Part shown: in pieces, positions 531 to 42,000 of the stretch | Layout: each line of letters begins with the position of its first letter | Numbering within the stretch: the stretch's first letter is position 1 | UHGV virus genome: UHGV-1488776 | From: a virus | Direction: 5' to 3' (one strand) | Length of the DNA stretch: 64,000 nt | Position numbers and translations under genes: made by a program | The notes under the pieces: generated by a model | What the model was told of the DNA's origin: nothing | What the model saw: the letters and a program-made list of their open reading frames with translations, nothing else | The model's database searches: none

Positions 531-2950
531 AAGAGCTGTGCTATGGATCTGTTTGCAGTGGAATTGAAGCCGCGAGTATTGCCTGGGAACCGTTGGGTAT
601 GCGTCCGGCGTGGTTTGCTGAAATCGAGCCTTTTCCATCTGCCGTTCTTGCGCACCGCTGGCCCCATGTCGCCAACCTTGGCGACATGACAAAACTTGCC
701 AAAAAAGTCCTGGCTGGGGAAATCGAATCCCCTGATGTGCTCGTCGGGGGTACGCCTTGTCAGGCATTCAGTATCGCGGGCTTACGTGGTGGGCTTGATG
801 ATGAACGCGGCGCGCTAACTTTGAAGTATGTGGAGCTTGCAAATGCAATTGACGACAAACGGTCTGAGTCCTTCCTCAAACCGACAGTTATCGTCTGGGA
901 AAATGTCCCAGGAGTCCTGTCATCGGCAGATAACGCCTTCGGATGTTTCCTTGCCGGATTGGCTGGAGAAGATGCGCCATTTGAACCAGGTGATCGACCT
1001 GAATCAGGAAAAAGTAACGCGTTCTGGCGGTGGGATGGCAAAACCGGTTGCCATGCTCCAAAGTGGCCGCAGTGTGGTTGTATTTATGGACCGCAGCGAA
1101 AGGTGGCCTGGAGAATCCTTGATGCCCAATACTTCGGAGTGGCACAACGACGCCGACGCGTGTTTGTTGTCGCAAGTGCTCGAACAGACCTCGATCCCGC
1201 AACGGTACTTTTTGAGTTCGAAGGCGTGCGCCGGGATATTGCGCCGAGCAGAGGCGAGGGGAAGGAAGTTGCCGGAAATGTTGGAAATGGCATTAAAAGC
1301 GGGAGCCATTGGGATAACCCTGTAAATCCTCACCCGACACTTAACCAGTCACACAATACTGGTGGGATTGGTGCAAGTAACCAAGAGATTTTTGCGCAGC
1401 GAGGCAGCGGACTTGTGTATTGCATGGCGCATGGGCAAGGGGGGGCAGAAATAAAAAATGATGGGACATCACCTACTCTTACTTGTAATCATGAAGCTCC
1501 AATTGTGTTTTCTTGCAAGAAAGCTATTGCGTTTACAAGCAAAAATTATGGGCAGGATGCGGGTGTTGAGATTTCCCCAACTTTACGAGCTGGTAACTCT
1601 GCTAATAGCAATCAAAACGCGGGATGCCCACCAGCTGTTGCGTATTCGCTACAACATGCACAAATTGGGCGAAAAGATGATGCTGGACCGCAGGGTAAAG
1701 GGTGGCAAAAAGAGATAAGTTTTACTCTTGATTCCCGCGCAACAGCTGACGCCGTTGCGTTATCTTTTTGGGGGCAGGAAAGTATTGAAAAAGGCGAATT
1801 AGGTGAGAATGGTTACTTACCTCATATGATGAGCGTTCGCCGTCTGACTCCTGTCGAATGTGAAAGGCTGCAAGGTTTTCCTGATGGACATACGTTGATT
1901 CCAACGGGAAAGCGTAAGAAAGTTACTTCAGATGAACTTATATACCTTCGCAATCACGATCCTGATTTAAGTGAAGAAGAGGCCGCCATGCTTGCAGCTG
2001 ACGGACCTCGTTACAAAGCGATCGGCAATAGTATGGCGATACCAGTAATGCGCTGGATTGGCGAGCGGATTACCAAGGCTGCATGTCGGCAGAAAGAAGG
2101 AAGTGAAACAAAAGAGCGAAAAGTTAAACCAGCGGCAGAATTCGAACGGTCCATATTCAAATGGGCTGGTGGAAAATTTGGTGTTCTGGAACAAATCTTT
2201 CGCTATTTGCCAGAAGGGAAGCGCCTGATTGAACCTTTCGTTGGTGGCGGAGCTGTCTTCATGAATGCCGGATACCAGGAAAATCTGCTAAATGATGTGA
2301 ATGCTGACCTGATTAACTTTTACAAGACTCTGCAACGCGAGGCGCATTCACTTATCACTCTGGCACATCGTTTCTTCCAGGACTACAACACGCAGGAAGG
2401 ATACCTGGCAGTACGGAATGCGTTTAACAAACAAGTCTATGATGATTTACATCGCGCAGCGGCGTTTTTGTTCCTGAACCGACATTGTTTTAACGGATTG
2501 ACGCGTTACAACCAAGCCGGTGAGTTCAATGTCGGTTATGGGAAGTATAAAACTCCGTATTTCCCATTGCAGGAGATGGAAGCCTTCCTTGGTGCGGAAG
2601 GGCGTTCTGAGTTTGTATGTGGTGATTTTGCTGCGGTGATTGAAGCTGCCGGAGAAGGAGATGTCATCTTTTGCGATCCGCCGTATGAACCGCTCCCAAA
2701 TACAGAGGGATTCACGAACTATTCCGGTCATGACTTTAAGTTTGAAGAGCAAAAACGCCTGGTGTCTCTGTTGACGGATGCTCATCGCCGAGGTGCAAAG
2801 GTTCTCATTACTAACAGTGGCGCGCCAAACATCAGAGAACTTTATCAGGACAGTGGCTTCAGAGTGGAACCTCTTTTTGCCAGACGTTCTGTGTCTTGTA
2901 AGGGGGGCTCTCGAGGTGTTGCTCATGACGTTATAGCAATATTGCTCTAA
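527..2950 (+). CDS. dmt: bifunctional DNA methyltransferase (N-terminal C5-cytosine MTase, C-terminal Dam-like N6-adenine MTase)
   Basis: 807 aa; N-terminal GTPCQAFS (PCQ motif) and WENVPG (ENV motif); C-terminal FKWAGGK and DPPYEP Dam motifs; position upstream of tRNAs and ban as in P1. Confidence 0.85.
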
Positions 2951-2957
2951 TAAATTT
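2941..2957. promoter_or_regulatory. C1 repressor operator, 17/17 match to ATTGCTCTAATAAATTT, with overlapping inverted partial site to 2968
   Basis: Exact consensus 17-mer overlapping the dmt stop codon; likely the operator of the tRNA-ban operon (Op72-like). Confidence 0.7.
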
Positions 2958-3134
2958 ATTAGTGTAATATCGCCTCAATGAATCGTGATTTATAGAGCGA
3001 TTTAGCTGTTAGCCGCGACAGGCGCGGCGGCAAGTATGGCGGGGTAGTGACTCCTTCCCCATCATGACGCCGAGTTGCCAGGTTGACCATACGCCTAAGT
3101 GGCAACACCGAAGTGCGTTACGAGCTTCCAGTTT

Positions 3135-3160
3135 GCCCATCTTCGGGTGGGCGTTTTTTT
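3135..3160 (+). terminator. rho-independent terminator-like hairpin
   Basis: GCCCAT-cttcgg-GTGGGC stem-loop followed by GTTTTTTT. Confidence 0.5.
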
Positions 3161-3625: not shown

Positions 3626-3701
3626 GATGGTGTAGCTCAGCGGTTAGAGCGGTTGACTGTTAATCAACGGGTCGATGGTTCAAATCCATCCACCATCGCC
3701 A
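3626..3701 (+). tRNA. trnA: tRNA-Asn (anticodon GTT)
   Basis: Hand-folded cloverleaf: acceptor GATGGTG/CACCATC, D-arm GCTC/GAGC, anticodon loop CTGTTAA, T-loop TTCAAAT, 3' CCA encoded. Confidence 0.85.
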
Positions 3702-3703
3702 AT

Positions 3704-3779
3704 GCCGGTTTAGCTCAGTTGGTAGAGCGCCTGCCTTGTAAGCAGGATGTCAGCGGTTCGAGTCCGTTAATCGGCACCA
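3704..3779 (+). tRNA. trnT: tRNA-Thr (anticodon TGT)
   Basis: Hand-folded cloverleaf: acceptor GCCGGTT/AATCGGC, anticodon loop CTTGTAA, T-loop TTCGAGT, CCA encoded; 2 nt after tRNA-Asn. Confidence 0.85.
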
Positions 3780-36947: not shown

Positions 36948-37136
36948 CTTAAGGGTTATTGAACATGATCAATTTACCTGTAAATCCATACAGTTCAATA
37001 CCTTATCAGGTCAAATAGTGATCACTTGATCATTTGATCAAGGTTGCGCTACGTAAAATCTGCGAAATGTTGGCAGTGTTAGTGCTCCAGATTTCGCGTA
37101 GCGCACTTAGCACCACCAATCAATCAGAGGTGAAAA

Positions 37137-37358
37137 ATGGGATATTCAGCTGCTAAAGTGTCCACTCATCTTGAGCTTGAGAAAAACCGTGGTTACTGGC
37201 GGGCAAAAGGGTTTGATCGTGATAGTTGCCAACTGTCATTATCGCGCGGTGAAGAGAAAATAGAACGCACGCGCGGTCGCTGGCGTTTCTATGACGAGAA
37301 CCATAAACAGGTAAAGGCAGAGCCGATCCTGTACACTTTACTTAAAACCATTATCTGA
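37137..37358 (+). CDS. small hypothetical protein upstream of cre
   Basis: 73-aa ORF with GAGGTGAAAA SD; preceded by a long inverted repeat. Confidence 0.4.
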   Translation: MGYSAAKVSTHLELEKNRGYWRAKGFDRDSCQLSLSRGEEKIERTRGRWRFYDENHKQVKAEPILYTLLKTII

Positions 37359-37365
37359 GTGTTAA

Positions 37366-38397
37366 ATGTCCAATTTACTGACCGTACACCAAAATTTGCC
37401 TGCATTACCGGTCGATGCAACGAGTGATGAGGTTCGCAAGAACCTGATGGACATGTTCAGGGATCGCCAGGCGTTTTCTGAGCATACCTGGAAAATGCTT
37501 CTGTCCGTTTGCCGGTCGTGGGCGGCATGGTGCAAGTTGAATAACCGGAAATGGTTTCCCGCAGAACCTGAAGATGTTCGCGATTATCTTCTATATCTTC
37601 AGGCGCGCGGTCTGGCAGTAAAAACTATCCAGCAACATTTGGGCCAGCTAAACATGCTTCATCGTCGGTCCGGGCTGCCACGACCAAGTGACAGCAATGC
37701 TGTTTCACTGGTCATGCGGCGGATTCGAAAAGAAAACGTTGATGCCGGTGAACGTGCAAAACAGGCATTGGCGTTCGAACGCACTGATTTCGACCAGGTT
37801 CGTTCACTCATGGAAAATAGCGATCGCTGCCAGGATATACGTAATCTGGCATTTCTTGGGATTGCTTATAATACCCTGCTACGTATAGCAGAAATTGCCA
37901 GGATCAGGGTTAAAGATATCTCACGTACTGACGGTGGGAGAATGTTAATCCATATTGGCAGAACGAAAACGCTGGTTAGCACCGCAGGTGTAGAGAAGGC
38001 ACTTAGCCTGGGGGTAACTAAACTGGTCGAGCGATGGATTTCTGTCTCTGGTGTAGCTGATGATCCGAATAACTACCTGTTTTGCCGGGTCAGAAAAAAT
38101 GGTGTTGCCGCGCCATCTGCCACCAGCCAGCTATCAACTCGCGCCCTGGAAGGGATTTTTGAAGCAACTCATCGATTGATTTACGGCGCTAAGGATGACT
38201 CTGGTCAGAGATACCTGGCCTGGTCTGGACACAGTGCCCGTGTCGGAGCAGCGCGAGATATGGCCCGCGCTGGAGTTTCAATACCGGAGATCATGCAAGC
38301 TGGTGGCTGGACCAATGTAAATATTGTCATGAACTATATCCGTAACCTGGATAGTGAAACAGGGGCAATGGTGCGCCTGCTGGAAGATGGCAATTAG
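37366..38397 (+). CDS. cre: Cre tyrosine recombinase
   Basis: 343 aa, MSNLLTVHQNLPALPVDATSDEVRKNLMDMFRDRQAFSEHTWKMLLSVCRSWAAWCKLNNRKWFPAEPEDVRDYLLYLQARGLAVKTIQQHLGQLNMLHRRSGLPRPSDSNAVSLVMRRIRKENVDAGERAKQALAFERTDFDQVRSLMENSDRCQDIRNLAFLGIAYNTLLRIAEIARIRVKDISRTDGGRMLIHIGRTKTLVSTAGVEKALSLGVTKLVERWISVSGVADDPNNYLFCRVRKNGVAAPSATSQLSTRALEGIFEATHRLIYGAKDDSGQRYLAWSGHSARVGAARDMARAGVSIPEIMQAGGWTNVNIVMNYIRNLDSETGAMVRLLEDGN; matches Cre as I recall it, except the last residue. Confidence 0.98.
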   Translation: MSNLLTVHQNLPALPVDATSDEVRKNLMDMFRDRQAFSEHTWKMLLSVCRSWAAWCKLNNRKWFPAEPEDVRDYLLYLQARGLAVKTIQQHLGQLNMLHRRSGLPRPSDSNAVSLVMRRIRKENVDAGERAKQALAFERTDFDQVRSLMENSDRCQDIRNLAFLGIAYNTLLRIAEIARIRVKDISRTDGGRMLIHIGRTKTLVSTAGVEKALSLGVTKLVERWISVSGVADDPNNYLFCRVRKNGVAAPSATSQLSTRALEGIFEATHRLIYGAKDDSGQRYLAWSGHSARVGAARDMARAGVSIPEIMQAGGWTNVNIVMNYIRNLDSETGAMVRLLEDGN

Positions 38398-38414
38398 CCA
38401 TTAACGCGTAAATG

Positions 38415-38431
38415 ATTGCTCTAATTCTTTG
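38415..38431. promoter_or_regulatory. C1 operator-like site (13/17)
   Basis: ATTGCTCTAATTCTTTG. Confidence 0.35.
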
Positions 38432-38447
38432 ATATTTATGGTGGCAT

Positions 38448-38759
38448 ATGAGAAAGGATTTCAACATCGACGGAAAATATGTAGTGCTGTCTGTAAGCAC
38501 TAATATTCTGTCGCCATCTGTCATTGTCACCGTAAAGTTGAGCGATAGGATGCCTGATATCGACTCGATATCTGTTGCGTTCCCCGTTAAAAGCATGCGG
38601 AGTGCTGAACATTTTGTGATGAATGCAACGGAGGAGGAAGCGCGGCGCGGGCTTACTAGAGTGATGGGGGAATTTGGCGAACTCCTGGGTAAGGTAAACA
38701 ATGCCCTTTCAATCAGTTCAGCAAGGTCCAAAGCGTTAACCGCTTCCATGATGAAATAA
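38448..38759 (+). CDS. cra: hypothetical protein between cre and ref
   Basis: 103-aa ORF; position cre-cra-ref-mat as in P1. Confidence 0.5.
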   Translation: MRKDFNIDGKYVVLSVSTNILSPSVIVTVKLSDRMPDIDSISVAFPVKSMRSAEHFVMNATEEEARRGLTRVMGEFGELLGKVNNALSISSARSKALTASMMK

Positions 38760-38764
38760 AAAAA

Positions 38765-38785
38765 AGCCTGGCAAGGAGCCAGGCT
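38765..38785 (-). terminator. terminator-like hairpin, T-run on minus strand
   Basis: AGCCTGGC-aagg-GCCAGGCT preceded by A8 on plus strand. Confidence 0.4.
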
Positions 38786-38891
38786 GCACAAAAGAGCGGG
38801 TTTGTATTCCGCATCCAATCAATCAAGAAGGAGTATAGCACACAGGTACTGAAGTGAAAAAATGTGATTCGCGAGAAACAAAATATATACC

Positions 38892-38921
38892 ATTGCTCTA
38901 ATTGATTGCTATAATTTGGCC
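38892..38921. promoter_or_regulatory. tandem C1 operator-like sites overlapping a TATAAT upstream of ref
   Basis: ATTGCTCTAATTGATTG and ATTGCTATAATTTGG; -10 at 38910-38915. Confidence 0.5.
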
Positions 38922-38975
38922 GCAGTTTTTGTCAACTACGAAGACGTTGCCATTACTTCACTCCTTGACATCATT

Positions 38976-39001
38976 GGCGGCCATTAGGCCGCCTTTTTTT
39001 T
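38976..39001 (+). terminator. rho-independent terminator-like hairpin in ref leader
   Basis: GGCGGCC-atta-GGCCGCC followed by T9, ending 5 nt before the ref ATG. Confidence 0.5.
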
Positions 39002-39006
39002 GCCAT

Positions 39007-39567
39007 ATGAAAACAATCGAACAAAAACTTGAACAGCGCCGCGAGTGGCAGAAGGCAGCCAGAGAACGAGCGATCGCTCGGCAACGGGAAAAGTTGGCTG
39101 ACCCCGCCTGGCGAGAATCGCAATATCAGAAAATGCGGGATTCTATCGACCGCCGTATCGCTAAACAGAAAGAGCGCCCACCAGCCAGCAAAACGCGGAA
39201 AAGTGCGGTAAAAATAAAATCTCGTGGCTTGAAGGGGCGAACACCGACGGAGGAGGAACAGACTATCGCCAATGCTCTTGGCACTCTCCCCTGCATTGCC
39301 TGCTACATGCATGGAGTAATATCTGAAGAGGTGTCTCTGCACCATATCTCCGGTCGTACCGCGCCGGGTTGTCACAAAAAGCAATTGCCCCTTTGCAGAT
39401 GGCACCACCAGCATGCAGCACCGGCTGAAGTAAGAGAAAAATACCCCTGGCTGGTCCCTGTTCATGCCGATGGCGTGGTAGGAGGCAAGAAAGAATTCAC
39501 CTTGTTGAACAAGTCAGAGATGGAGTTGCTGGCTGACGCCTATGAAATGGCAAACATCATGCACTAA
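39007..39567 (+). CDS. ref: Ref, HNH-family recombination enhancement endonuclease
   Basis: 186 aa from MKTIEQKLEQ; basic N-terminus; HNH-like LHHISGRTAPGCHKKQLPLCRWHHQH. Confidence 0.8.
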   Translation: MKTIEQKLEQRREWQKAARERAIARQREKLADPAWRESQYQKMRDSIDRRIAKQKERPPASKTRKSAVKIKSRGLKGRTPTEEEQTIANALGTLPCIACYMHGVISEEVSLHHISGRTAPGCHKKQLPLCRWHHQHAAPAEVREKYPWLVPVHADGVVGGKKEFTLLNKSEMELLADAYEMANIMH

Positions 39568-39718
39568 TAAATATATTATTTTTAATCTTAAATGATTGAC
39601 AACTGACAAGTGACTTGAGTCAGAATCATCACACGCCCGGTACGGATGGATCCCTTTTCAAATATTCCATGGACGGCACAGTCTGAGTACCGGGCGCTAC
39701 CTTCAGTTGTATTGCTAA

Positions 39719-39745
39719 GCCGCCGCTGGTGGCTTTTCTTTTTTG
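39719..39745 (+). terminator. rho-independent terminator-like hairpin
   Basis: GCCGCC-gct-GGTGGC followed by TTTTCTTTTTT, ending about 10 nt before the mat ATG. Confidence 0.45.
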
Positions 39746-39755
39746 TAGGGGCGCT

Positions 39756-40397
39756 ATGGATAAGAAAATATGCGTTGTTTCGATGAGCGTCGGCAAACCG
39801 GCGTCAATGACTGCTGCATGGATCAACAACGAGCTGATAATGGCTGAGCGGACCAGCTACCCTGAACGCCGCCGCGACATGGAACTCCAGCTGCTGCGCG
39901 AATTGCGAGAAAAAGAGGAAAAGGGTTTTATCGTGCTGGTGGAAGAGGAAAACAGCTTTATTACTGGTCGAGTTGGCCAGCGTGTAAGGTTGCGCGATCC
40001 CTTCATGAACGGCAGGCCGGTACTGATTGAAGCAATGCAGATTTACAAGGAGCTGGAACGCCAGAAAGCGATCAAGTTACCGCGCAAGGAATCCGGCAAA
40101 TACATCCTCCACCAAAGCATCTTCGATTCCGAACACGATAAAAAAGGCGATGAATTTTTCAACATCAACTGGAGCGAAATAACGACAGAGCATGTTCTGA
40201 CGTTACTATGTTGCTTTGCGACGGAATACAACAACGTTGCCAGCGCCGACTACATCAGGGCAATGGCTGGAGAAGTTGAAGCCCGCCAGGAACCATCGTT
40301 ACTAAGTCCACTTATTAACATAATTCTGGGTACCCAGACACTGGAACAAAAAAAAGTGCCGAAAGGGGTATTAACAGGCAAGCATAATTATTTCTAA
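39756..40397 (+). CDS. mat: hypothetical protein (P1 mat position)
   Basis: 213 aa from MDKKICVV; position after ref as in P1. Confidence 0.5.
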   Translation: MDKKICVVSMSVGKPASMTAAWINNELIMAERTSYPERRRDMELQLLRELREKEEKGFIVLVEEENSFITGRVGQRVRLRDPFMNGRPVLIEAMQIYKELERQKAIKLPRKESGKYILHQSIFDSEHDKKGDEFFNINWSEITTEHVLTLLCCFATEYNNVASADYIRAMAGEVEARQEPSLLSPLINIILGTQTLEQKKVPKGVLTGKHNYF

Positions 40398-40564
40398 TAA
40401 TTTATAGTGGGGACTTTTGATGGTGTAAAACCCCATGAATTATTATTTTTTAGTTTTTTGATTCTATTTTTTTTTGCATTACCCGTCATAAAAATGAGCT
40501 TGCTTACATAATAGAAAATTATTTTATCAACACTATTACAACAAACGATTATCACTGATAACAT

Positions 40565-40588
40565 GAGTCCTTTGAAAACAAAGGACTC
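40565..40588 (+). promoter_or_regulatory. perfect 10-bp hairpin abutting the GNAT start codon
   Basis: GAGTCCTTTG-aaaa-CAAAGGACTC, 8 nt upstream of the ATG at 40597. Confidence 0.4.
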
Positions 40589-40596
40589 ACCATACT

Positions 40597-41205
40597 ATGT
40601 CTAATACCTCGGCAAATGAAATTGTACCGCACTTACCGCTAATTTTCGAAAATGAAGCTAATGGGATTCTTCAGGATCTGGCCTATACTCCATCGCTTAT
40701 GGGGTTGATGATGTTCCCGACAGAAGAGGAGCTGAAAGCAGCGAGAAGCTACATAATTAACGTTTTTGAAGAGTGTTACCGAGCCGGTCATTTGCGCATT
40801 ATGGGCTTTACTAATGAAGAAAACTTGTTCGGATACGCCTTAATCTTCGGACATCCATCGGGAAATTTTCCGTTGTACTGTCATAAAATATATGTATATG
40901 AGCAATATCGTGGTAATGGACTTGGAAGTAATATACTGGCAGAAATACTTGCATTTCCAAATGAGGTCGCTTTGATTTGCCAGTCTGATTTGGTTCCTTT
41001 TTATGAATCAGCCGGAATGCACTTTAAAGGAAATTACACCACTCCATCAGTCGCCAATTTCAAAAAAACTCGCGGCATGTATGAGGGGCTTTGTTTGATG
41101 AGCACTGAAAAAAATGCAAACTCTAATGGTGTACCTATATTCATGCTGAACGATAACGATATTGATAACATCATACAGGCTATCGCATCATCGGCACCAC
41201 GATAA
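40597..41205 (+). CDS. GNAT-family N-acetyltransferase
   Basis: 202 aa; GNAT motif A YEQYRGNGLGSNIL and FYESAGMHF; AT-rich codon usage unlike flanking phage genes. Confidence 0.7.
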   Translation: MSNTSANEIVPHLPLIFENEANGILQDLAYTPSLMGLMMFPTEEELKAARSYIINVFEECYRAGHLRIMGFTNEENLFGYALIFGHPSGNFPLYCHKIYVYEQYRGNGLGSNILAEILAFPNEVALICQSDLVPFYESAGMHFKGNYTTPSVANFKKTRGMYEGLCLMSTEKNANSNGVPIFMLNDNDIDNIIQAIASSAPR

Positions 41206-41260
41206 TATTAATAATTCATCTCGCCGCAGGAACTACAAACCAGTTGATTGTTTGTGAAAC

Positions 41261-41278
41261 GCCCGGTGCAAACCGGGC
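41261..41278. terminator. GC-rich hairpin between convergent genes
   Basis: GCCCGGT-gcaa-ACCGGGC. Confidence 0.4.
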
Positions 41279-41287
41279 CAACAAAAC

Positions 41288-41536
41288 TCAATCAGCATTG
41301 AGAAGCAATGCATTATCTATGATGATCTGCTCCCATTCTTCGAATGCCCGGTCGCGGACGCCCTGGGGAACACTGTTTGTTTTGAAATCGACGACTGTAC
41401 GCCATTTCCCGTCCGGACGGTACATGCGCAGAGCTTTACTTCCCCCTTCCCTGCGCACCTCAACGTTATGCTTGTCAGCAAACTCTTGTAATGCTCGTAG
41501 CGTCCCATGCTTTACTGTGTAGTATCGCTTTTTCAA
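41288..41536 (-). CDS. small hypothetical protein at end of darB operon
   Basis: 82-aa ORF overlapping upstream stop; size and position fit my memory of P1 lxc (bof), unverified. Confidence 0.4.
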   Translation of the reverse strand: MKKRYYTVKHGTLRALQEFADKHNVEVRREGGSKALRMYRPDGKWRTVVDFKTNSVPQGVRDRAFEEWEQIIIDNALLLNAD

Positions 41537-41973
41537 GTTTTCTCTCCAGCCTGTGCCAAGGCTTCAACTTCCAAATCGTAAGACTCAAACTCATAGTCCT
41601 GGTCGTCAACTTCTTCAGGCACTGGCAGTAAATGCCAGGCTGAGTATATCTGACCATTATCAAAACGCTCCTGGCTGTAGAGCGTCGCGGCTATGAGTGT
41701 TAGCGCCGGGCGGTCATAACGGTAAATTTTGCGAACGTCACGGTCAACGAGACGACCGAAATTACCATAACCGCGCTCCAGTAATAATTTTTTAATTTCC
41801 GGCCAGTATGGACCATAGCTGCGGTACAGGCGGGGATTTTTCAGTAATCGCCCGCGTAGCCCTGACAGGAAGAAATCAACGTATTCGTCTTCTGTCTTTC
41901 CTAACAACGCTGTACGGAGTACCGCCTCAAGATATGTTTTATTCGGTTTTATTGTATCAGATAGTGTGGCCAT
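41533..41973 (-). CDS. hypothetical protein co-oriented downstream of darB
   Basis: 146-aa ORF 34 nt downstream of darB; P1 ulx/hrdC neighbourhood. Confidence 0.45.
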   Translation of the reverse strand: MATLSDTIKPNKTYLEAVLRTALLGKTEDEYVDFFLSGLRGRLLKNPRLYRSYGPYWPEIKKLLLERGYGNFGRLVDRDVRKIYRYDRPALTLIAATLYSQERFDNGQIYSAWHLLPVPEEVDDQDYEFESYDLEVEALAQAGEKT

Positions 41974-41982
41974 ATTATGCGA

Positions 41983-42000
41983 CGCCCGGCGAACCGGGCG
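41983..42000. other. GC-rich hairpin in darB 3' intergenic gap
   Basis: CGCCCGG-cgaa-CCGGGCG, same motif as the hairpin at 41261. Confidence 0.35.

Follow-up and report, generated by a model that had tools for sequence, protein, structure and literature searches.

Probable intrinsic terminators in the leaders of ref and mat in a P1-like phage-plasmid

The virus genome UHGV-1488776 supplied the DNA analysed here, a stretch of 64,000 nucleotides (nt) that we call the window and that represents a P1-like phage-plasmid in which the genes cre, c8, ref and mat follow one another in that order. Over positions 38760-39800, which include the leaders of ref and mat, the window shares 96-98% identity with phage P1 and its relatives. 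Each of these two leaders ends in a hairpin followed by a T-rich tract, set close to the start codon, and it is probable that both hairpins are functional Rho-independent terminators that insulate as well as attenuate. As insulators, the ref-leader hairpin would stop read-through from cre-c8 and the mat-leader hairpin would stop ref transcripts, in each case shielding a downstream nuclease-type gene from transcription outside C1 control. As attenuators, each would halt most transcripts from its own C1-controlled promoter (P2ref for ref; Pmat and LPmat for mat), so that no more than a read-through fraction would extend into the coding sequence and expression would stay low even after induction. 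Regulation of this read-through could come from an alternative pairing predicted in the ref leader or from a structured domain in the mat leader. Operator and terminator together would form a double lock, which makes sense for Ref, a toxic HNH nuclease with a weak or absent Shine-Dalgarno sequence, and for Mat, for which a terminase-nuclease-like fold is predicted.

Both elements have the anatomy of an intrinsic terminator, namely a G+C-rich stem, a short loop and a U-rich tract directly 3' of it. The ref hairpin (GGCGGCC-ATTA-GGCCGCC, 38976-38993) has seven G-C pairs, a loop of four and a folding energy of -15.0 kcal/mol; the mat hairpin (AAGCCGCC-GCT-GGTGGCTT, 39717-39735) has eight pairs, five of them G-C and one G-U, a loop of three and an energy of -11.0 kcal/mol. 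The preliminary description of this DNA, made from the letters alone, had put a hairpin and T-run before each gene, and both are found where it placed them, with the correction that the ref tract is T8 rather than T9. It was also right that ref has no canonical Shine-Dalgarno sequence: the five nucleotides GCCAT that separate T8 from the ATG at 39007 contain none. The mat gene differs in this respect, as its tail is followed by GTAGGGGCGCT and then by the ATG at 39756, with a Shine-Dalgarno-like GGGG at 39748-39751. The distance from hairpin to start codon is 13 nt for ref and 20 nt for mat. As the opposite strand lacks a T-run at either hairpin, both are unidirectional terminators of the plus strand. 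When both strands of the whole window were scanned strictly (stems of 6 or more pairs, 5 or more G-C pairs and at least 6 T in 8), 6 sites appeared in the 64 kb, against 0.5 +/- 1.0 expected from 30 first-order Markov randomisations; the ref and mat hairpins are among them, and 38765-39735 holds three of the six. A loose consensus scan of a 5-kb region gave no enrichment (8 sites vs 5.5 +/- 2.2 in shuffles).

The hairpins are also positioned to act on the transcripts in question. A C1 operator and TATAAT upstream of the ref hairpin had been proposed, and 38892-38915 matches Oref and P2ref as annotated in P1, whose features we moved onto the window by alignment with AF234172 (constant offset 36930). 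The -10 element of P2ref (38910-38915) precedes the hairpin at 38976, just as the -10 element of LPmat and Pmat (39621-39626) precedes the hairpin at 39717. Because each hairpin lies downstream of its annotated promoter and upstream of its start codon, each ref or mat transcript must cross it, the sole exception being the predicted bypass promoter P1ref of ref. The ref-leader hairpin is, moreover, the first plus-strand terminator after cre-c8. A nearer hairpin at 38765-38785 is a minus-strand terminator, near-invariant across all lineages aligned; its plus strand lacks a T-run, and it should therefore not halt cre-c8 transcripts. The mat-leader hairpin is likewise the first plus-strand terminator after ref in the window.

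Comparison with related loci indicates that the ref hairpin has been maintained in evolution. On the matter of conservation in P1, which the preliminary description had raised, the window's ref leader is identical to that of P1 from GCCGCAG to ATG, and it is common to 83 loci of IMG/VR. Among close relatives the stem is almost invariant, its rare variants are mostly wobble-compatible, and the loop reads ATTA or ATCA; the T-run varies between T7 and T10, and some sequences have one more A ahead of CCATATG. Since the length of the spacer between hairpin and ATG thus varies by single nucleotides, a reading frame across it is excluded. An alignment of 13 variants had 97.8% of its cells paired, with double-sided changes in three of the seven pairs and a covariation score that none of 500 shuffles reached; slid registers fell to 16-69% paired. 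The Salmonella and Klebsiella ref loci, in which Ref is 53-66% identical, carry ATTGCTCTAATA, the operator, TATAAT, a leader of ~50 nt, the stem GACGGTC-TTCG-GACCGTC and T7-T9, after which a weak GGG/GGAG precedes a GTG or ATG. In Pantoea an operator and a short leader are followed by GCCGCC-TCCG-GGCGGC and T7, but 95 nt upstream of the start. With differing stems, the order of operator and TATAAT, leader of 50-60 nt, and hairpin with T7-T9 recurs in every case of a ref with a C1 operator; operator and hairpin are both missing at Ref homologues in other genomic contexts. A scan of genome contigs for Ref returned only two near-identical loci.

A class of P1-like plasmids without ref, sampled at 78-83% identity in the plasmid search, bears directly on what is being selected. 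These plasmids, pO111_2, p779-3 and pEA4_97, retain c8 and the minus-strand terminator, then operator region, leader and hairpin with T6. Their homology to the window stops exactly after the T-run, where a convergent operon of ant (a KilAC antirepressor) and icd begins; the arrangement lies at about 1400-1700 in the loci NC_013370 (L003), CP086223 (L002) and CP117679 (L004), whose order here does not follow that of the plasmid names. The stem is intact or has a single mismatch and the loop differs (TAAA), while p779-3 has lost 13 nt of the operator and -10 region and the -10 of pEA4_97 has become TACGAT. The ref-leader hairpin is therefore selected even where ref is gone and where, as in some of these plasmids, the promoter decays. 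The likeliest reason for its persistence, judged from this comparison, is that it serves as the terminator of the cre-c8 unit.

The case for mat draws on 17 distinct sequences upstream of the gene, which come from Escherichia, Salmonella, Citrobacter, Klebsiella, Pantoea, Leclercia, Buttiauxella and metagenomic contigs and belong to Mat proteins 33-100% identical. In all 17 a G+C hairpin and T-rich tail stand ahead of a Shine-Dalgarno sequence and start codon, and a TTGAC-type -35 element is conserved upstream of all of these leaders. The stems read GCCGCC/GGYGGC or GGCCGC/GCGGCC, changes in them run from A-U to G-C and from G-U to G-C, and the loops measure 3-8 nt; as both loop length and spacer vary, the hairpin region is non-coding. 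In two lineages (L092 and L102) the preceding gene has a terminator of its own before the mat promoter, and the leader hairpin is thus not merely the terminator of the upstream gene. The remainder of the leader is structured as well. Its closing stem of 10 bp carries double-sided changes in four of the ten pairs, and 95% of cells are paired, vs 37-47% in slid registers (six window-type sequences). Three distant leaders of unrelated sequence (L103, L184 and L204) each fold into the window-type layout; MAFFT mis-registered the stems of this group, and what we say of it rests on individual folds and inspection. A covariance model built from the leaders of the window group matched the distant ones weakly at the homologous place (E-values 0.003-0.7), and it found no further copy in the window beyond the single one, which rules out a general late-operon device. 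Identity to the window across 64 distinct close relatives is 98.4% for the mat leader, 94.4% for the mat coding sequence and 87% for its third codon positions. Of the families in Rfam 15, riboswitches, put, C4 and DicF among them, only tRNAs reach the gathering score in the window, and 37000-42000 gave three sub-threshold matches at chance level.

These arguments presuppose the correct start codons, and the starts of both genes were accordingly set beforehand as a point on which the proposal could fail. Residue-1 alignments of homologues uphold both 39007 and 39756. Ref N-termini align from residue 1 with the Salmonella-lineage protein, which is 66% identical, and the crystallised Ref (3plw) comprises the same 186 residues; a longer Ref that would begin with the in-frame TTG at 38947 is excluded by these N-termini together with the T7-T10 and extra-A spacer variants. 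Mat homologues, including those 72-76%, 56%, 40% and 33-38% identical, are mostly 210-218 amino acids long and align from residue 1, the 212-position profile of PHROG 1837 is matched end to end, and the RefSeq annotation of RCS47 gives the 213-residue protein. The GenBank records of P1 (AF234172, 2387-3139) and P7 (223-975) instead give a Mat of 250 residues, from an ATG equivalent to 39646, that reads through the leader terminator and starts 110-111 nt upstream of the conserved start. That frame is broken in the window, which has GGGG where P1 has GGGGG. Among close relatives the two ATGs are 111 nt apart, and so in frame, in 115 locus instances, and 109, 110 or 112 nt apart, out of frame, in 152; the upstream ATG is thus in frame in only ~43%. 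Among lineages farther removed, a shift or stop codons interrupt the upstream frame, and the peptide is not conserved. Frame variation and the unconserved peptide rule out as coding both the 250-residue Mat and a 46-residue frame from 39646. These sequence comparisons support the ATG at 39756, preceded by AGGGG, as the start of a 213-residue Mat and 39633-39755 as a non-coding leader, and on the same basis the mat start annotated in P1 is too far upstream.

How read-through might be governed differs between the two leaders. In the nascent RNA of the ref leader, the candidate antiterminator GUUGCCA (38946-38952, plus strand) is predicted to pair with the 5' arm of the terminator (38975-38981) with P ~1.0; in the complete leader RNA it pairs with the 5' end instead, and the terminator is favoured by 8.5 kcal/mol. 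Nascent folds predicted for most other lineages, though not for Pantoea, also sequester the 5' arm, by means of partners at non-homologous positions. We found no conserved leader open reading frame in the ref leader, where start identity (GTT, ATT, GTG, ATG), frame and stop position vary across lineages; a leader peptide ending at a stop in the hairpin loop fits three ref-less lineages, but elsewhere would mostly start with GTT, and its stop is lost in the ATCA-loop variants. No pairing that competes with the terminator is predicted in the nascent mat RNA, and the mat leader has no conserved leader open reading frame, that from 39646 being variable. The ref leader also contains a perfect 6-bp inverted repeat (TGTCAA, 38930-38935, and TTGACA, 38965-38970), which may form an RNA helix or bind a protein. 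Salmonella-type ref leaders have a related pairing of CUGUCA with UGACGG that involves the 5' arm of the terminator.

From this arrangement we infer termination in vivo, with a partial read-through whose efficiency, and any regulation of it, would set the level of Ref and Mat. The earlier suggestion of attenuation or antitermination on top of C1 repression stands in so far as genuine, selected hairpins lie between promoter and start; the analysis found neither an antitermination factor nor a conserved leader peptide. The same description had raised a coupling of translation initiation to the structure; an in-frame Ref reaching upstream through the hairpin is excluded by the spacer variants, and mat has its own Shine-Dalgarno sequence beyond the hairpin. 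Several observations weigh against the main reading. Taken whole, the ref leader shows no more conservation than the ref coding sequence (95.9% for each). Transcripts from the predicted promoter P1ref would begin near 38981, within the 5' arm, and thereby bypass the ref hairpin; P1ref is not conserved in Salmonella-type leaders. Several mat lineages have an interrupted U-tract (UUUCGCCUUUUC), for which weaker termination is predicted. Finally, the strong conservation of the mat leader upstream of its hairpin is unexplained by a plain leaky terminator; a regulated switch may lie behind it, or a role in mRNA stability.

A promoter, a short non-coding RNA and a strong terminator with a long U-tail make up the typical build of an enterobacterial small-RNA gene, and the two units could be just that, yielding RNAs of ~75-80 nt from P2ref and ~105-110 nt from Pmat/LPmat that act in trans or as decoys, with ref and mat expressed only via incidental read-through. 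Such a reading would accommodate the persistence of the ref unit in plasmids without ref, its position 95 nt upstream of the ref start in Pantoea and the extreme conservation and structure of the mat leader, and P1 offers a precedent in the C1-operator promoter whose 'dicF-like' region ends in a strong terminator (window 2941-3153). We nonetheless hold it to be rather improbable. Within the window the ref leader has no complementarity above chance, only 9-11-mers at chance level, and neither unit matches Rfam; the ref-less plasmids have a promoter that is partly deleted or weakened and yet keep the hairpin, which points to the terminator and not the RNA as the selected part; and the mat hairpin is joined to the mat ribosome binding site in every lineage, as expected of an element acting in cis.

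Two further explanations concern what the leaders do besides, or instead of, simple termination. The mat leader may be a regulated antitermination switch, in which the conserved domain binds a phage or host factor or a ligand, or modifies RNA polymerase, and so lets it pass at the right time, for instance late, with Lpa-dependent transcription. The covarying closing stem (four of ten pairs changed on both sides), the like folds of distant lineages of unrelated sequence and the excess of leader identity (98.4%) over that at third codon positions (87%) speak for such a switch, and the domain lies directly 5' of a terminator for which no competing nascent pairing is predicted, so that relief would need a factor. 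No such factor was found, however; the predicted fold of Mat, terminase-nuclease-like or RNase H-like, is atypical for a regulator and led us to discard the idea that Mat binds RNA and regulates itself; in the window the covariance model detects the domain only once; the homology between the two groups of leaders is marginal (E-values 0.003-0.7); and a 5'-terminal stem-loop could simply stabilise the mRNA. Taken together this makes the switch quite improbable in our estimation. It is very unlikely that the main action of the hairpins comes after transcription, where they would affect stability from the 5' or 3' side and modulate translation initiation, with termination a side effect. One would then picture, with equally little confidence, the U-run as an S1 landing pad for a ref without Shine-Dalgarno sequence, its T8 ending 5 nt before the ATG, and the U-tract as masking the A-rich start of mat, where the predicted leader fold pairs it with AUGGAUAAGAAAA; the short distances of 13 and 20 nt to the start codons would suit such roles. 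The Pantoea ref hairpin lies 95 nt from its start, though, and the ref-less plasmids have no downstream gene at all; the length of the T-run is freely polymorphic (T7-T10); the GGG/GGAG that follows it in Salmonella and Klebsiella argues that a U-run is no general substitute for a Shine-Dalgarno sequence; and mat has an ordinary one downstream of its hairpin.

If the hairpins are insulating and attenuating terminators, as we consider probable, C1 operator and leader terminator would act as successive locks on two nuclease-type genes, and this may explain how the toxic, RecA-dependent Ref stays silent in lysogens despite the adjacent upstream cre-c8, which is needed constitutively. A bolder proposal, which we think unlikely but worth stating, is that the mat 5' leader is an undescribed, family-wide cis-regulatory RNA of P1-like phage-plasmids that times the production of a terminase-nuclease-like maturation protein, its structured domain being read by a phage or host factor or by RNA polymerase and deciding whether the terminator is passed. 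If true, it would be a new antitermination or attenuation switch, and very strong conservation and covariation single the mat leader out as a concrete candidate for a regulatory RNA. P1 is a workhorse among phages, and resistance genes are commonly carried by P1-like phage-plasmids. For practical purposes, the mat coding sequence of the P1 and P7 records runs across a leader that is conserved and non-coding, and we advise use of the 213-residue start for knock-outs, guides for CRISPR interference and expression constructs. The features of the locus are collected in Table 1.

Table 1. Features of the cre-mat interval, in window coordinates
Feature	Position	Strand	Details and source
cre	37366-38397		List of open reading frames
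c8	38448-38759		List of open reading frames
Minus-strand terminator hairpin	38765-38785	-	AGCCTGGC-TCCTT-GCCAGGCT and T8; just past the c8 stop; strong
P2ref, C1-controlled	38887-38915	+	Oref ATTGCTCTAATTGATTG 38892-38908; -10 TATAAT 38910-38915; P1 GenBank features transferred
ref 5' leader, non-coding	38922-39006	+	~85 nt; start inferred from the -10 position
P1ref, predicted second ref promoter	-35 38947-38952; -10 38969-38974	+	P1 annotation
ref-leader intrinsic terminator (probable)	38976-39001	+	Stem 38976-38982 / 38987-38993; loop ATTA; T8 38994-39001
ref	39007-39567	+	186 amino acids; RecA-dependent HNH nuclease; ATG start, no Shine-Dalgarno
Omat, C1 operator	39558-39575	not assigned	Overlaps the end of ref; P1 annotation
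Pmat (sigma-70) and LPmat (late)	39596-39626	+	P1 and P7 annotations
Elements of Pmat and LPmat	Pmat -35 39596-39601; LPmat -22 39608-39616; common -10 39621-39626	+	Pmat -35 TTGACA
Structured mat 5' leader	39633-39716	+	Closing stem 39634-39643 / 39687-39696; two small hairpins, then linker
Small hairpins inside the mat closing stem	39646-39650 / 39666-39670; 39671-39674 / 39681-39684	+
mat-leader intrinsic terminator (probable)	39717-39744	+	Stem 39717-39724 / 39728-39735; loop GCT; tail TTCTTTTTT 39736-39744
mat ribosome binding site and coding sequence	39747-40397	+	AGGGG 39747-39751; ATG 39756; 213 amino acids

Some further observations were made around these features. Between c8 and ref (window 38757-38860), where P1 annotates nothing, there may be a minus-strand small RNA of ~68 nt, with a promoter-like sequence at 38860-38832 (TTTTCA-17-TATACT with TG), a small hairpin and the terminator at 38785-38765 with its T8; its fold has a z-score of -3.4, and it is almost invariant even where the ref leader is only 78% identical. 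The window has CGAGAAA at 38870-38880, where a passage of PMC4713147 on the P1 ref regulatory region reports the H-NS site CGATAAA. Omat lies upstream of the Pmat -35 element, an unusual spot for repressing Pmat, and the best promoter-like match of the region (minus strand, 39602-39575, TTGTCA-16-AATAAT, 10/12) runs antisense into ref and abuts or overlaps Omat. Downstream of mat, at 40597-41205, the window has a plus-strand open reading frame of 202 amino acids (PHROG 10454, function unknown), in the place where P1 has its res and mod type III restriction genes. Elsewhere, a strong plus-strand terminator at 18208-18236 (11-bp stem and T7) has GAGGAGGG and TTG within ~10 nt, a terminator set tight against a ribosome binding site.

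The ref and mat leaders recall several known systems without coinciding with most of them. The rplL-rpoB attenuator of Escherichia coli and T1 of rpsU-dnaG-rpoD are internal, partial terminators within a single transcription cascade, and the likeness lies in a leaky, constitutive terminator before a gene needed at a much lower level, which is expressed by read-through. Those systems differ from the window in that here a repressor-controlled promoter stands between the upstream gene and the terminator; because a dedicated promoter precedes each terminator, the window's terminators would attenuate their own promoter as well as upstream read-through. With the leader-peptide attenuators of trp, his and pheA our leaders share a short leader that ends in a terminator and, for ref, a predicted, mutually exclusive upstream pairing, but neither leader has a conserved leader reading frame. 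The structured RNA between phage promoter and terminator in mat resembles lambda N/nut and Q/qut and the put RNA of HK022; unlike these, it has no sequence or Rfam similarity and no recognised boxA- or boxB-like motif, and occurs in one copy in the window. We know of no antiterminator in P1. P1 itself provides RNAs of similar build, in which a non-coding transcript that ends in a strong hairpin with T-run comes after a C1 operator and promoter. One is the immI c4 RNA, where a C1-controlled promoter is followed by a non-coding RNA. The other is the 'dicF-like region' of the P1 record, which corresponds to window 2941-3153. There the end of dmt carries a perfect C1 operator (ATTGCTCTAATAAATTT), from which ~190 nt of non-coding sequence lead to a strong terminator (3134-3153 with T7), upstream of two tRNA genes (3626-3776), and the region scores below every Rfam gathering score. 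Both RNAs are thought to act in trans, for which the ref and mat leaders provide no support, the complementarity of the ref leader within the window being at chance level.

The closest comparison is with the ref gene of P1. The title of Windle, Laufer and Hays (1988; J Bacteriol 170:4881) names promoter-operator as well as attenuator-antiterminator control of P1 ref, and the element is the same as in the window, where the region is about 96-98% identical to P1. The alternative pairing predicted for the ref leader fits the 'attenuator-antiterminator' wording of this title. Attenuator control of ref is thus already in the literature, at least by title, whereas the terminator in the mat leader looks to be undescribed: full-text literature searches, whose searched text did not extend to Lehnherr (2001) and Lobocka (2004), returned nothing on it. 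For ref, what the comparison of sequences appears to add is the compensatory changes in the stem, the recurrence of the element in Salmonella, Klebsiella and Pantoea, its persistence in plasmids without ref, and a likely second role in ending the cre-c8 unit.

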